DNA of 64,000 nt, taken from the sequence record PV287714.1; one strand, 5' to 3'. The notes beneath the pieces are model-generated. The model was not told where the DNA came from, did not search any database, and saw only the letters and a program-made list of their open reading frames with translations. The DNA comes from Escherichia phage HMD-9. Shown here piece by piece: positions 670-5,424 of the stretch; the stretch's first letter is position 1; every line of letters begins with the position of its first letter. Position numbers and translations under genes: made by a program.

Positions 670-856
670 TATCTAAAATGTTGAAGTTAAAAGATACCGC
701 CCAGTCAGTGCAGACCGTGACCTTTTTAATACAATTATCTTCAACCTCTAGTGGTTCAAACCAATATTCAATAATTTCTTTATGCCCAATATCATCTTTT
801 ACTTCGCATTCAAAATGCTGACTCATCATAACATTTTTAAATTCATCAAAAGTCAT
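593..856 (-). CDS. small hypothetical protein (46.x-like)
   Basis: ORF track 87 aa; ATG overlaps gp47 stop (ATGA coupling). Confidence 0.5.
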   Translation of the reverse strand: MTFDEFKNVMMSQHFECEVKDDIGHKEIIEYWFEPLEVEDNCIKKVTVCTDWAVSFNFNILDNDTPKSLQDMAVSCIKDAYCEVFDI

Positions 857-1872
857 TGTGTTGCCTCTACATATAACTGATTTGCATATTGAATAAGTGC
901 TTCACGGTCAGAATCAGTGATGTCTGGAATTGCATTAATGTATTCTTCCATCAACGTCTGAAGAGATTGAACTTCAACTTCTTCACTATCATCTGACTCG
1001 ACAGAGTTATCAATCTTTGACACAACTCGTAATGAATGCACAACTTTTTCTAGTTCAGATTCGAACTTCGTTAGATTTTTGTCTACTTCAGTTACTATAA
1101 CACGTACTGATAGATTTGTAAAATCTTTATAGTCAATTTTTCCCTTAAATGGATATTGAATTCGACGATGCCAGGTAGTGTTGTTTGGAATAAATTCCAT
1201 TCGTTCTGTTTCTGTATCAAACATCCAGAACCCACGAGGGTCATTCTCGTCACCTGCAGTTAGTGTCCATGGTGTCCCAATATATCTGACGTTAGCAGCC
1301 TCAGAGATAGTATGGAAGTGACCAGACCACACTTCTTTGTAAGTCTTAAGGAAATCAGGTTCAAGACCGTGAGATTTCATTCCTTTATAAAAATAAAATC
1401 CATTCAGTTCCCAGTGACCGACACAAAAAGAAGCAGATGAAGTTTTAATATGTTCAAGAATTTCACCGGTATTTTCTTCACACATCCAAGGAATTAAATC
1501 AATCAAACATCCGTCAAAATCTACAGTAGTAGGCTTATCATATACTTTAACATTAGGATATTTAGCCAAAAGCTCAGTAGAAGCATTTGGATGCATTACA
1601 TTTTTGTAGTGAAGATCGTGATTTCCTACAATAGTATGTAATGTGATTCCAGCGTCATCAAGCATTTGAACTATTTCACGGGCGAATTCCATAGTTTTAT
1701 GTGTGATTGCTTTTCGCACATCAAAAATATCACCATATTGAATCCATACAGTAATTCCATTTTTCTTAGAATATTCTATCGCTTGCTTAATTCCATCAAT
1801 TTGAATACCGCGAATCCACTCATCATCAGCTTTAACGCCTAAATGCCAATCACCCAAGTTTAGTATTTTCAT
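853..1872 (-). CDS. 47: recombination nuclease subunit gp47 (Mre11-like metallophosphoesterase)
   Basis: 339 aa; phosphoesterase motifs GDWHLG, GDIFD, GNHD, GHFH; T4 synteny 47-46. Confidence 0.93.
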   Translation of the reverse strand: MKILNLGDWHLGVKADDEWIRGIQIDGIKQAIEYSKKNGITVWIQYGDIFDVRKAITHKTMEFAREIVQMLDDAGITLHTIVGNHDLHYKNVMHPNASTELLAKYPNVKVYDKPTTVDFDGCLIDLIPWMCEENTGEILEHIKTSSASFCVGHWELNGFYFYKGMKSHGLEPDFLKTYKEVWSGHFHTISEAANVRYIGTPWTLTAGDENDPRGFWMFDTETERMEFIPNNTTWHRRIQYPFKGKIDYKDFTNLSVRVIVTEVDKNLTKFESELEKVVHSLRVVSKIDNSVESDDSEEVEVQSLQTLMEEYINAIPDITDSDREALIQYANQLYVEATQ

Positions 1873-2473
1873 GGTGTCTTTTCCATCCTAATTTAGCTGC
1901 TTTTGAAACCAGTTCTTTAATTTTTCCTTTTGTCCATTCAGGACCAGGAGGTTCATGACATAACATTTGCTTAACTCCGTTATTATACCATTTTTTACCT
2001 TTATTATGTGATGAAGCTTTAAATTTATTTGACCTTCCTTTTACATAACCTTCTGGAATATAAGGCAAAAAGGCAGATTTTCCTGTTAATGGATCATGTG
2101 AATGTATATTTCCTTTACAATTATGAGAACCATATAATGGATGATTTTGTCCTTTATTATCTCTTCCAAATGAACCTTTTGGAGCAGCATATGACATATT
2201 AAAGAATAATGGATTTTTAACTGCATCATGCAATCGTTGATAATATAACTCGCATTTAATAGCTTCTTCACGCGTATCAAATTCAGCTAAAATGCATGAA
2301 TCAAATAAGTGAGGATTATCTGAAAGCTCTTTATTATAAATTTTCTTATACTTTTTAGATAAAACTGAACCATGATATCCAGCTAAATGCCTATCTAAAG
2401 ACGTAGATCCAATATAAAAAGGAGGAAGTTTATCTCCACTATATATTGTTAAATAAGTTATATATTTTTTCAT
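1850..2473 (-). CDS. GIY-YIG family endonuclease-like protein (seg-like homing endonuclease candidate)
   Basis: 207 aa; N-terminal TIY-x8-YIGST, Arg/Glu/Asn in GIY-YIG spacing; C-terminal GxxHSxxxK-type repeats and KKWYNNG motif typical of homing-endonuclease DNA-binding modules. Confidence 0.6.
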   Translation of the reverse strand: MKKYITYLTIYSGDKLPPFYIGSTSLDRHLAGYHGSVLSKKYKKIYNKELSDNPHLFDSCILAEFDTREEAIKCELYYQRLHDAVKNPLFFNMSYAAPKGSFGRDNKGQNHPLYGSHNCKGNIHSHDPLTGKSAFLPYIPEGYVKGRSNKFKASSHNKGKKWYNNGVKQMLCHEPPGPEWTKGKIKELVSKAAKLGWKRHHENTKLG

Positions 2474-2610
2474 ATATCAAGAACCGTCATTGAAATGCAA
2501 AATAAAATTATTGAAATAAATCCATCTGGAGTGCTAAAGAACCCAATCCAACATGCTCTAGTGAATAGATAAAATGCGAGAAAAAGTATCACATATCCAA
2601 GAAATATCAT
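2470..2610 (-). CDS. small hydrophobic ORF (46 aa, MIFLGYVILFLAFYLF...), translationally coupled to the GIY-YIG-like gene
   Basis: Manual translation; GGAG RBS upstream; TGA overlaps downstream ATG (ATGA); below the 60-aa ORF-track cutoff. Confidence 0.3.
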   Translation of the reverse strand: MIFLGYVILFLAFYLFTRACWIGFFSTPDGFISIILFCISMTVLDI

Positions 2611-2629
2611 TATATCAAACTCCGTATAA

Positions 2630-2652
2630 AGCTAAAGGGCCGAAGCCCTTTA
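2630..2652 (-). terminator. GC stem-loop (GGGC-UUCG-GCCC) directly after a-gt stop; weak U-run
   Basis: Inverted repeat gggccgaagccc at 2637-2648. Confidence 0.4.
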
Positions 2653-3852
2653 TTTTGTAATAATGTCAAACTGCTCTTTAAAGCAGAAGCTTGAATCTTG
2701 ATGCTGATACAAAAATTCATAAGCTTTTTCACGTTCACGGTCATAAAGAGCTCGGTCAGATGACAGTTCTTTAATACGTTCAAATGTTGATTCCATGTCA
2801 TTTTCATCAAACCAAACGATACCGCTATCATGAGAAATTAATGGAGTATTATCAACACGGAATTTTAAATTTTCGCCCGTAGATTTCCAAAATACTGGAA
2901 TTGTTCCACATGCACCAAGCTCGAGATGAGTATATTCTAAAGAACGTTGTAGATATTTTTTATCTAATTTACTCAGCTGATAGCCAAATCCGGATTTACT
3001 CATGCGTTCAAGCATTTCGCTATTTACGTAACGGTCAAGAATTTGCGTTGGCAAATTAGGAGCAATTTTAATTTGGTCTACTTGATGAAGACGATAATAC
3101 TCGTATGGAATTCCTTTTTCTTTAATAGGAATGAATGCTGGAGAACGTTCCAGACCTTCCATAATAGTACTTAGTCCTGCAGGTTTAAGATGTTTTTCAT
3201 GAAAATCAAACATCTGATAAAAGCCTTTCCATGTAGTAGTACGACCAATCCAACGGTTGATATTCATGTTAATTTCAGAAACATCTTTCCAGTAGGTTGA
3301 TCGAACCTTCGCAATATCCATAGGAGGCTGAAAGTTATATACGGTCGGTGCTTCTTCAATATCATCAAACAGAGAAACAGTTTCCGGATACCATTCTTTC
3401 ATCAAAACTTTATTAAAGTCACCATTATCAGAATGGCTAAAAATAACATCAGCTCGACGAACAGTTTCTTCTAATCCCAAATTTCGACGCAAAGAAAGAG
3501 AAGAATGGTCATGCTGATAAACTACAACACGAACCGAAGGTTTAATGTTATCAATAATTTTTTTATAGTTATTAATGGTGTCTTCTTCTACTGAAGTAGC
3601 AGGAACTGAATTGATAATTAAAATATCGCAATCATTTACCAGTTTAAGTGTTTTATCGTATTCTTTTGCCAATAAAACCGGAATTGAAAATGACTTATAA
3701 TCATGTGCGCAATTACGAGTAAATGATTTATCTTTAGCATAAACCAAAGTTACTTCATGACCATTTTTAATAAACCAATCACGTTGCTCAAGAGAAAATT
3801 TAGTTACACCGCAACCTTCAAGACCTCGAGCCATAAAAATACATACTTTCAT
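2650..3852 (-). CDS. a-gt: DNA alpha-glucosyltransferase
   Basis: 400 aa; N-terminus MKVCIFMARGLEGCGVTKF matches recalled T4 a-gt; synteny between 47 and 55. Confidence 0.9.
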   Translation of the reverse strand: MKVCIFMARGLEGCGVTKFSLEQRDWFIKNGHEVTLVYAKDKSFTRNCAHDYKSFSIPVLLAKEYDKTLKLVNDCDILIINSVPATSVEEDTINNYKKIIDNIKPSVRVVVYQHDHSSLSLRRNLGLEETVRRADVIFSHSDNGDFNKVLMKEWYPETVSLFDDIEEAPTVYNFQPPMDIAKVRSTYWKDVSEINMNINRWIGRTTTWKGFYQMFDFHEKHLKPAGLSTIMEGLERSPAFIPIKEKGIPYEYYRLHQVDQIKIAPNLPTQILDRYVNSEMLERMSKSGFGYQLSKLDKKYLQRSLEYTHLELGACGTIPVFWKSTGENLKFRVDNTPLISHDSGIVWFDENDMESTFERIKELSSDRALYDREREKAYEFLYQHQDSSFCFKEQFDIITK

Positions 3853-4095
3853 TTAATATCCTCATTGTTTTGGTTTATTTTACCAAAAATTTATAAAGCA
3901 ATATAGGAGCCGAAGCTCCTATCCGCATAATACGCCATACAGAGGCTCATTAGAGCTTCTAAATTTTATACGCTTATATGTTATAGTTCCTTCTGCTTTA
4001 GCTTTATCATGAGACTCTTTAAAGCGTCTCATCATTTCTACTTTAGAGGAACGAATTTTATTATAATCTATTTCAGAAGTCTGGGTGTTCATCTT

Positions 4096-4302
4096 TCACA
4101 GTTGCCACCATTTTTTGACTTGATAAGAATCAACCCACACTTTCATATTAGGGTCTGCTCTTACAATAGGAGGATTAACTTCTTTAATTGAACTATCATG
4201 GTATTCTTTTTCAGAAATTTTCACGCAAAGATGACCATTCAAAGATTCAGTAAATCCTGCATTAATTTTAAGACGCTTGAATTTTACGCGTGTAAGCATC
4301 AA
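4096..4302 (-). CDS. hypothetical small protein
   Basis: ORF track 68 aa; overlaps neighbour by 35 nt. Confidence 0.35.
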   Translation of the reverse strand: MMLTRVKFKRLKINAGFTESLNGHLCVKISEKEYHDSSIKEVNPPIVRADPNMKVWVDSYQVKKWWQL

Positions 4303-4586: not shown

Positions 4587-4805
4587 TTATTTCTCTAATA
4601 TAAAATAAAAATCATCATCTGTTAAATGATACCGATAGTTTAATTCTACACCATTAGATTTAAAAGCGGTATCATACGGATTTTCTGGATCAATATCAAT
4701 GTCAAGAGCTAAAACTTCCCTGAGATACATTTTAAGTAAATAGGGAATAGCTTCAACTTCAGGTATTTCTTCCAAGAATCCGGAGAGGTTAATCGTTAGC
4801 CTCAT
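4587..4805 (-). CDS. hypothetical protein
   Basis: ORF track 72 aa, directly downstream of gene 55. Confidence 0.45.
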
Positions 4806-5346
4806 ATAAAAAATCCAAACTAGGAGAATCGTCTACAACACTTTTCTTTTCAGCCCCTGGTGTTCTATAGGTTGATTCTTCGTAATGCGTCATTTTATCG
4901 TAGATGTCTTGAATAAAAGTTTCATCTACTAACGCAACCATATCGTCGTCACGACTGTCATAGACATTGTGAACGAAGTAACTGTATTTCTTTGCAACTT
5001 CCTTACGTTCTTTTTTAATACGTTGGACGAATGCATTAAAACAAGCTTGAGTTATATATGCATGTGGGTTTTTATATTTCGTTTCATCAAAATTATGAAG
5101 CCCCTTAATAGAAGCTTCTATACCATCTGCAATCATTTCTTGTTTCCAGGATTGGGTGTATCCTGAAAAGTTGAAACGTTTAGATAAGCCTTCTGCAATA
5201 AGCATAATGGCTAATCCGATAGTATCATTCTGACGAACTACTTTATTTGGGTCTTTATTATTTGCTAATTCTGTTTTCCAATCAATAATAGCTTGTAAAA
5301 GCTCTTTATTGTTTACGTAATTATATTTAGGCTTAGTTTCTGACAT
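4789..5346 (-). CDS. 55: late-transcription sigma factor gp55
   Basis: [24 protein letters not shown]... matches recalled T4 gp55; 185 aa from ATG at 5346. Confidence 0.9.
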
Positions 5347-5424
5347 TTTCACCTCTTAGCTCAATTCATAGATCTATTATATCATAATATTTGAAGATCT
5401 ATCTTAAAGCATAGAGGATATCAG

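Follow-up and report, generated by a model that had tools for sequence, protein, structure and literature searches.

We report that a 207-amino-acid (aa) open reading frame (ORF) between genes 47.1 and 47 of Escherichia phage HMD-9 is probably a functional homing endonuclease gene, free-standing and of the GIY-YIG, Seg-like kind, as judged from its sequence and predicted structure. All coordinates refer to the analyzed stretch of 64,000 nucleotides (nt) of record PV287714.1 (hereafter, the window), which is part of a T4-like (Tequatrovirus) genome. The ORF has the GIY-YIG fold and catalytic residues, is under purifying selection, and shows a precise presence/absence polymorphism. Furthermore, near-identical copies occur in diverged backgrounds, and its position at the start of gene 47 is fixed across genera. 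It lies on the same strand as its two neighbors, both of which are intact, and no intron or intein is involved. The original prediction had correctly placed the ORF, the ATGA overlap of its start with a 46-aa ORF, and the 23-nt overlap of its end with gene 47. The flanking genes that it named, 47 and a-gt, were recovered through Pfam (Metallophos and AGT). The features of the locus are as follows.

1850..2473, minus strand: 207-aa ORF, probable GIY-YIG (Seg-like) homing endonuclease gene, ATG start (Pfam, PHROG and fold matches; ratio of non-synonymous to synonymous substitutions, dN/dS)
1873..2473, no strand assigned: 601-bp insertion relative to T4, RB14, T2, T6 and PP01 (T4/RB14 alignment; population alignment)
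2189..2464, minus strand: GIY-YIG catalytic domain, aa 4-95, with TIY9-11, YIG20-22, R28, R68, E75 and N92
1865..2113, minus strand: putative DNA-binding region, aa 121-203 (secondary structure and confidence of the structure model)
1850..1872, minus strand: 23-nt overlap of the 3' end of the endonuclease ORF with the start of gene 47
1855..1866, minus strand: codons 3-6 of gene 47, with four synonymous differences from T4-type genomes
2470..2610, minus strand: gene 47.1, resident gene for a 46-aa predicted membrane protein (PHROG 6693; annotation in RB14, PP01 and T2)
853..1872, minus strand: gene 47, Mre11/SbcD-like recombination nuclease subunit (Pfam Metallophos; annotation in relatives)

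The N-terminal domain has a GIY-YIG nuclease fold

Pfam matched the GIY-YIG domain to aa 4-84 of the protein (E 3e-4). PHROG returned phrog_10820 ('HNH endonuclease', E 1e-94) and phrog_314 ('homing endonuclease', E 5e-18), and NCBIfam gave no meaningful match for the 207-aa protein. In a large protein collection, 170 homologues were found at E<=1e-3, many of them carrying NUMOD3 and a few the GIY-YIG Pfam domain. These homologues, together with a dN/dS of about 0.05 between alleles, indicated that the ORF is not a chance reading frame. A search with phmmer and a family hidden Markov model detected no paralogue or family member elsewhere in the window.

Next, conservation was scored in an alignment of 51 relatives, reaching down to ~35% identity; PF01541 was matched by 14 of these at E<=0.01. 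The invariant positions were Y7, Y11, G13, P17, Y20-I21-G22-S23, Y33, G35, S39, L56, F57, A71, E75 and N92, and R68 was nearly invariant. The degenerate GIY-YIG signature that had been read from the sequence (TIY, YIGST, Arg28, Glu75 and Asn92) is thus present, with Thr in place of the Gly of GIY and a spacer of 8 residues to YIG. The catalytic Glu and the downstream Asn expected of the superfamily (E75 and N90 in I-TevI) are represented by E75 and N92. Profile alignment (hhalign) of the family with an I-TevI sequence placed E75 opposite E75 of I-TevI, in a match that was weak (E 0.34).

A search of PDB chains with the single sequence gave chance matches to ribosomal proteins only. Since sequence searches of the PDB were unhelpful, fold comparison was needed. 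An AlphaFold model built from the alignment of relatives was confident over aa 1-95, with a predicted local distance difference test score (pLDDT) of 91-98. Its order of elements was strand-strand-helix-helix-strand-helix, and it contained the three-stranded sheet flanked by helices that characterizes the GIY-YIG fold. Foldseek against the PDB placed the I-TevI catalytic domain at the top (probability 1.0, target template-modeling score 0.61). The fold matches, namely I-TevI, PD-T4-3, the UvrC N-domain, Eco29kI and T4 EndoII, were GIY-YIG nucleases, in agreement with the family originally predicted. In a viral structure library, 69 matches were obtained at E<=1e-3, mostly to GIY-YIG, Seg-like or NUMOD proteins.

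The C-terminal region

The linker (aa 100-120) was modeled with low confidence. In aa 121-203, the model predicts two repeats, each a beta-hairpin (HSHDPLTG..IPEGYVKGR and KKWYNNG..PGPEWTKGK), and then a helix at the C-terminus, with a pLDDT of 64-95 for hairpins and helix. From the modular architecture of relatives, we infer that this region may bind DNA. The NUMOD or homing-type repeats that had been assigned to it were not recovered, as Pfam found neither these nor any other domain in the C-terminal 108 aa. NUMOD3 is carried by 26 of the 51 aligned relatives.

Relatives that have only the nuclease domain in common end in other C-termini, often NUMOD3 repeats, and those checked were not adjacent to gene 47. 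In some cases, several of them lie on one contig. Such swapped C-termini appear, from the sequences, to be the usual domain shuffling of homing endonucleases. Two examples are a 'GIY-YIG homing endonuclease' of Yersinia phage TG1 and a NUMOD protein of IME281, whose nuclease domains are 45-70% identical to that of the 207-aa protein and have the same TYLTIYSG..PPFYIGST signature. They differ from it in having NUMOD3 C-termini and in lying at other loci (~4.7 kb in TG1), which is consistent with the swapping of DNA-binding modules to reach new targets.

The insert is precisely present or absent among Tequatrovirus genomes

Alignment with T4 and RB14 showed a clean 601-bp insertion at 1873-2473. 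Its boundary is ambiguous because the same 7 nt, ATGAAAA, begin both the endonuclease ORF and gene 47. A target-site duplication was considered for these two copies and rejected, since they are simply the Met-Lys start common to both ORFs.

About 450 records covered 60% of the query (900 of 1501 nt). Filled sites were then counted with a 50-nt probe across the filled right junction, and empty sites with a probe across the empty junction at full coverage. The counts were taken from the GenBank phage collection; IMG/VR gave few close Tequatrovirus loci. We found 68 filled and 448 empty records, such that ~13% carry the insert, and the empty set includes T4, T2, T6, RB14 and PP01. These are counts of records, and some phages occur twice through duplicate RefSeq and GenBank entries. 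This comparison supported the earlier suggestion that presence of the gene may be strain-specific. Some GenBank records name the ORF a 'putative homing endonuclease', and many RefSeq records an 'HNH endonuclease'.

Alleles are under purifying selection and sit in diverged backgrounds

The interior of the ORF was at least 99% identical to that of the window in 50 of the 68 filled records and 95-99% identical in the other 18. Eleven filled and nine empty genomes were aligned. Two allele groups were observed among the filled ones: PaulHMueller, ECO4, NBG2, fPS-90 and ERS-1 differ from the window at 0-2 of 597 nt, and Killian, BP32, SH-2, GEP001 and P922 at 17-24 of 597 nt, with PhiZZ23 intermediate. 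The groups differ by 14-19 synonymous versus 3-5 non-synonymous changes, giving a dN/dS of 0.05-0.06 between the groups, within a range of 0.03-0.06 between alleles; values for genes 47 and a-gt were comparable (0-0.04). Intact copies were found in nine of the eleven sampled genomes. The damaged ones were GEP001, with the nonsense change G183*, and ERS-1, an 'UNVERIFIED' record with frameshifts.

PaulHMueller and ECO4 showed no difference from the window over the 597-nt insert interior and the first 172 nt of gene 47, while 47.1, a-gt and the rest of gene 47 were ~3% diverged. Such an identical tract, comprising the insert and ~170 nt of gene 47, in diverged backgrounds is compatible with co-conversion and also with linkage. 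In fPS-90, the insert stands beside a T4/T6-type a-gt allele, ~15% diverged from that of the window, and the window-type a-gt is present in several empty genomes. Therefore, the insert is uncoupled from the background a few hundred nucleotides away.

Four synonymous changes at the start of gene 47 accompany the insert

Codons 3-6 of gene 47 read ATA CTA AAC TTG in the window and ATT TTA AAT TTA in T4, differing at positions 1864, 1863, 1858 and 1855. In the sampled genomes, this cluster of four changes was the only consistent difference between filled and empty sites near the insert. The last ~55 nt of 47.1 were the same in all of them, and the ~30 nt of gene 47 that follow the cluster were nearly so. 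The state of these codons across all records was as follows.

Filled, junction identical to that of the window: 61 of 68 records
Filled, one or two mismatches: 6 records
Filled, T4-type codons: 1 record (ERS-1, disrupted ORF)
Empty, T4 type (including the RB14 variant): ~425 of 448 records (~95%)
Empty, insert-type codons: 9 records from 8 phages, e.g., PBM-1, Ec_YwIITB1 and SHFML-26
Empty, more diverged: 13 records, e.g., Gaprivervirus

This association of codons with the insert is the pattern expected of target-site immunity or of tight co-conversion. From the sequence comparison, the four synonymous changes are thus candidates for an immunity determinant or a co-conversion marker. The nine empty sites with insert-type codons might record repair events in which the insert was not transferred, or a precise loss of the insert between the ATGAAAA repeats.

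Gene 47.1 is resident, and the insert has taken over its coupling to gene 47

The original prediction had paired the endonuclease gene with a coupled small hydrophobic ORF. The coupling was confirmed, as the stop codon of the 46-aa ORF and the ATG of the 207-aa ORF share the sequence ATGA. The pairing was not, and the small ORF is a neighbor rather than a partner. It is annotated as gene 47.1 in T4, RB14, PP01 and T2 and belongs to PHROG 6693. In T4 and RB14, the 47.1 stop overlaps the gene 47 start by the same ATGA. Because 47.1 is present and coupled in this way to gene 47 in all Tequatrovirus genomes with an empty site, it is resident and not part of the cassette, and a role as an immunity or membrane factor of the endonuclease was rejected. 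The insert has taken over the 47.1 coupling that gene 47 uses in empty-site genomes.

The interval from a-gt to gene 47 contains neither a T4 late TATAAATA nor a MotA box, and sigma-70-like matches in it were below shuffled expectation. No promoter or terminator belonging to the endonuclease gene itself was found. The lack of promoter elements between a-gt and 47 suggests co-transcription with 47.1, 47 and 46; judging from this arrangement, the endonuclease gene is probably co-transcribed with these genes and translated through the ATGA coupling to 47.1. Gene a-gt has a MotA-box-like element and hairpins at its flanks. Within the WYNNG motif, the codons for Trp-Tyr-Asn (TGG TAT AAT; 1979-1987, minus strand) also read as an extended -10-like TGGTATAAT, ~115 nt upstream of the gene 47 start. 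This TGGTATAAT has no matching -35 element or MotA box.

Homologues occupy the same site in other T4-like genera

Full-length homologues with 48-76% identity were found in Klebsiella KP185/KPV15 (labeled 'homing endonuclease'), Escherichia QL01/IME08, Serratia LC53, Erwinia FBB1 and Aeromonas L9-6. The gene lies immediately upstream of gene 47, in the same orientation, in QL01 (a JS98/IME08-like coliphage), KPV15, L9-6 and the metagenomic T4-like contigs L051 and L130-L135. In the window, the TGA stop of the ORF falls within GGTGAT, the Gly-Asp codons of the gp47 GDWH motif. Six loci (L130-L135) have an overlap with gene 47 of exactly 23 nt as well, and their TGA falls within GGTGA(Y), which encodes the Gly-Asp of the GDxH motif; the overlap is only 14 nt in QL01 and KPV15, where the ORF ends earlier. 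The last 4-7 codons of the endonuclease are therefore read from the first codons of gene 47, and the ATGAAAAT of gene 47 itself encodes the '(H/N/Y)-E-N' that is conserved at the C-terminus. In the KPV15 record, the reading frames of the endonuclease gene and of gene 47 are both broken, probably through sequencing errors.

The upstream neighbor varies, being 47.1 in the window, a DUF5486 gene in L131 and L132, and a DUF2654 gene in Aeromonas-type loci. No 47.1 homologue was detected upstream in nine filled loci of other genera, and one is present in many empty-site genomes. In genera other than Tequatrovirus, no locus was observed to have both a 47.1 homologue and the endonuclease gene upstream of gene 47, and some genomes there have neither gene, with an intergenic region bearing a strong Shine-Dalgarno sequence instead. 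The Aeromonas homologues contain a clear gene 47 Shine-Dalgarno sequence (AGAGGA) inside their 3' ends. Since the upstream neighbors differ and the 5' end of gene 47 is constant, the target would be expected at the 5' end of gene 47.

We then compared the identities of the endonuclease and of gp47 to the copies in the window, which were 72/75, 64/67, 61/70, 50/50 and 48/51%. The endonuclease thus tracks gp47, suggesting long residence in each lineage rather than recent jumps between genera.

Neighboring genes and other endonuclease sites

The remaining genes around the locus are as follows.

2650..3852, minus strand: a-gt, DNA alpha-glucosyltransferase, upstream neighbor transcribed in the same direction (Pfam AGT, E 2e-236)
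up to ~408, minus strand: gene 46, 5' end
between 46 and 47, minus strand: 46.1 and 46.2
beyond a-gt, minus strand: a-gt.2 to a-gt.5, then gene 55 (4789-5352)

Gene a-gt occurs as two alleles ~15% apart, one in the window, RB14, T2 and PP01 and the other in T4, T6 and fPS-90, and their distribution is independent of the endonuclease insert. A homing endonuclease gene is annotated just upstream of a-gt, at the mobB position, in the T4 locus (3311-3900) and the fPS-2 locus (3441-4124). In the window (3853-3918), RB14, T2 and PP01, a-gt directly adjoins a-gt.2, without an endonuclease gene at that position. The mobB position is a second polymorphic endonuclease site within ~1.5 kb of the 207-aa ORF.

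T6, PP01, PhiZZ23 and T2 carry an ORF of 204-284 aa between 46.1 and 46 (T6 locus 2490-3344; corresponding to ~405 in the window). Most of these genomes annotate it as a homing endonuclease, and the window, T4 and RB14 lack it. The T6 endonuclease upstream of gene 46 was considered as possible kin of the 207-aa protein and found to be unrelated (BLASTP E 0.04, no Pfam hit). With this ORF and the 207-aa ORF, an endonuclease insertion site immediately precedes the start of each of the two gp46/47 subunit genes.

Discussion

By the criteria testable here, which are those of sequence and predicted structure, the 207-aa gene appears to belong to the GIY-YIG (Seg-like) homing endonuclease genes that occur free-standing in T-even phages. 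Like T4 SegA-G, it is a free-standing GIY-YIG gene between conserved T-even genes with an irregular distribution in close relatives, and, as for the Seg genes, its carriers have sequence differences next to the insertion. By analogy with Seg enzymes (e.g., SegB, PMC2330249), it would be expected to cleave the allele that lacks it and to co-convert flanking markers. Unlike the T4 Seg genes, it is absent from T4 and also from T2, T6 and RB14, and the Pfam family SegE_GIY-YIG was touched by one aligned relative only. With I-TevI, the endonuclease of the T4 td intron (catalytic domain, 1LN0/1MK0), the protein is only 17-20% identical, and I-TevI is intron-encoded whereas the 207-aa gene is free-standing. 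The motif is TIY-X8-YIG in the 207-aa protein and GIY-X10-YVG in I-TevI, with Arg or Lys after YIG in the 207-aa family, and no zinc finger, NUMOD3 or helix-turn-helix was detected by Pfam in the C-terminus of the 207-aa protein. Petrov et al. counted one 'seg-like GIY-YIG' gene in KP15 (PMC2993671).

DNA cleavage, the target site, the source of immunity and homing itself are our inferences, and we propose the following course. The endonuclease gene would share a transcript with 47.1, 47 and 46, which lie on its strand, and would be translated through the ATGA coupling to 47.1 in place of gene 47. During mixed infection, the C-terminal modules would recognize either the 47.1/47 junction or the 5' end of gene 47 in a co-infecting genome without the insert, and the tethered GIY-YIG domain would make a double-strand break there. 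Recombination repair (gp46/47, UvsX) would then use the donor as template and copy the 601-bp insert together with markers next to it. The carrier itself would be protected by the insert splitting the site, by the four synonymous changes in codons 3-6, or by both.

Several points weigh against a functional homing endonuclease. At the level of the protein, the PF01541 score of 21.4 bits falls narrowly under the gathering cut-off of 22.6, the Foldseek E-value of the I-TevI match in the PDB is 0.02, and a search of PDB chains with the 51-sequence profile found no relative. Position 28, which follows YIG and corresponds to R27 of I-TevI, is Arg in the window protein and Lys in most homologues. The C-terminal 108 aa match neither NUMOD nor any known DNA-binding domain in Pfam. 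At the level of the populations, the cluster of four single-nucleotide changes could reflect simple linkage and is, taken alone, statistically unexceptional in mosaic genomes; nine empty records have the insert-type codons, and one filled record, ERS-1, has the T4-type codons. T-even phages recombine freely, and mosaic backgrounds alone therefore do not prove homing. The tracking of gp47 by the endonuclease fits long vertical residence as well as repeated homing. Finally, literature searches returned no paper that characterizes or names the gene of the 207-aa ORF.

Four other explanations were weighed against these data. The label 'HNH endonuclease', found in many RefSeq records and on PHROG 10820, would make the protein an HNH enzyme; there was, however, no HNH Pfam match at E<=1, and no HNH structure stood among the top fold matches, which were GIY-YIG nucleases. 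An HNH identity was thus refuted by the fold search, which leaves it barely any credence, and the RefSeq label is therefore wrong. The protein could instead be chiefly a sequence-specific DNA-binding regulator and not a nuclease. I-TevI, through its autorepression, gives a precedent (PMC10448857), and the predicted modular architecture, with a separate C-terminal region that may bind DNA, would suit such a role. We regard this as highly improbable, as selection has conserved the catalytic residues, no operator-like repeat was found, and the gene is present or absent among relatives in the manner of a mobile element. A homing endonuclease remnant, inactive and in decay, that hitch-hikes beside gene 47 would account for the degenerate TIY motif with its 8-residue spacing and the Pfam score below cut-off, as well as for G183* in GEP001 and the frameshifts in ERS-1. 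Nevertheless, the low dN/dS between alleles, the catalytic Glu, Asn and Tyr invariant in all 51 homologues, and the nine intact copies among eleven make a remnant very unlikely.

The fourth explanation, a nuclease kept mainly for the benefit of the phage, is also unlikely in our judgment. The endonuclease would cut the gene 47 of competitors (marker exclusion or interference) or supply a translation start for gene 47, with self-copying secondary. The strong purifying selection (dN/dS ~0.05), the old association in which the end of the ORF is embedded in gene 47 across genera, the parallel identities of endonuclease and gp47, and the gene 47 Shine-Dalgarno sequence within the Aeromonas homologues all fit it, and published work gives precedents for exclusion by phage homing endonucleases. 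However, only 13% of Tequatrovirus records carry the gene, and the others express gene 47 in its absence; these observations are also compatible with ordinary homing, and the two readings are not mutually exclusive. A related, tentative idea, to which we give a small chance, is that the attachment of the endonuclease lineage to the start of gene 47 predates the divergence of several T4-like genera, and that the gene is a semi-domesticated element. If so, the gene would be hard to delete cleanly and would provide the translation start region of gene 47. It would possibly tune the Mre11-like nuclease that repairs the breaks the endonuclease makes, and the four synonymous changes would be a mapped immunity determinant.

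Taken together, we favor a functional homing endonuclease. The kind of element is well known, and no new mechanism is revealed. What is modestly new is the fixed attachment to the start of gene 47 across genera with an embedded stop codon, the candidate immunity changes with natural control alleles in public genomes, and the mislabeled family name; the widespread RefSeq label 'HNH endonuclease' is wrong for this protein family. Free-standing homing endonucleases shape which genes T-even phages exchange or exclude in mixed infections, and, to our knowledge, only T4's own have been tested. Here, the probable target is the start of an essential recombination gene. Public genomes hold filled, empty-sensitive and empty-'resistant' alleles, along with homologues at the same site in other genera, such that this locus is a ready-made system for mapping the target and immunity determinants of a Seg-type endonuclease.

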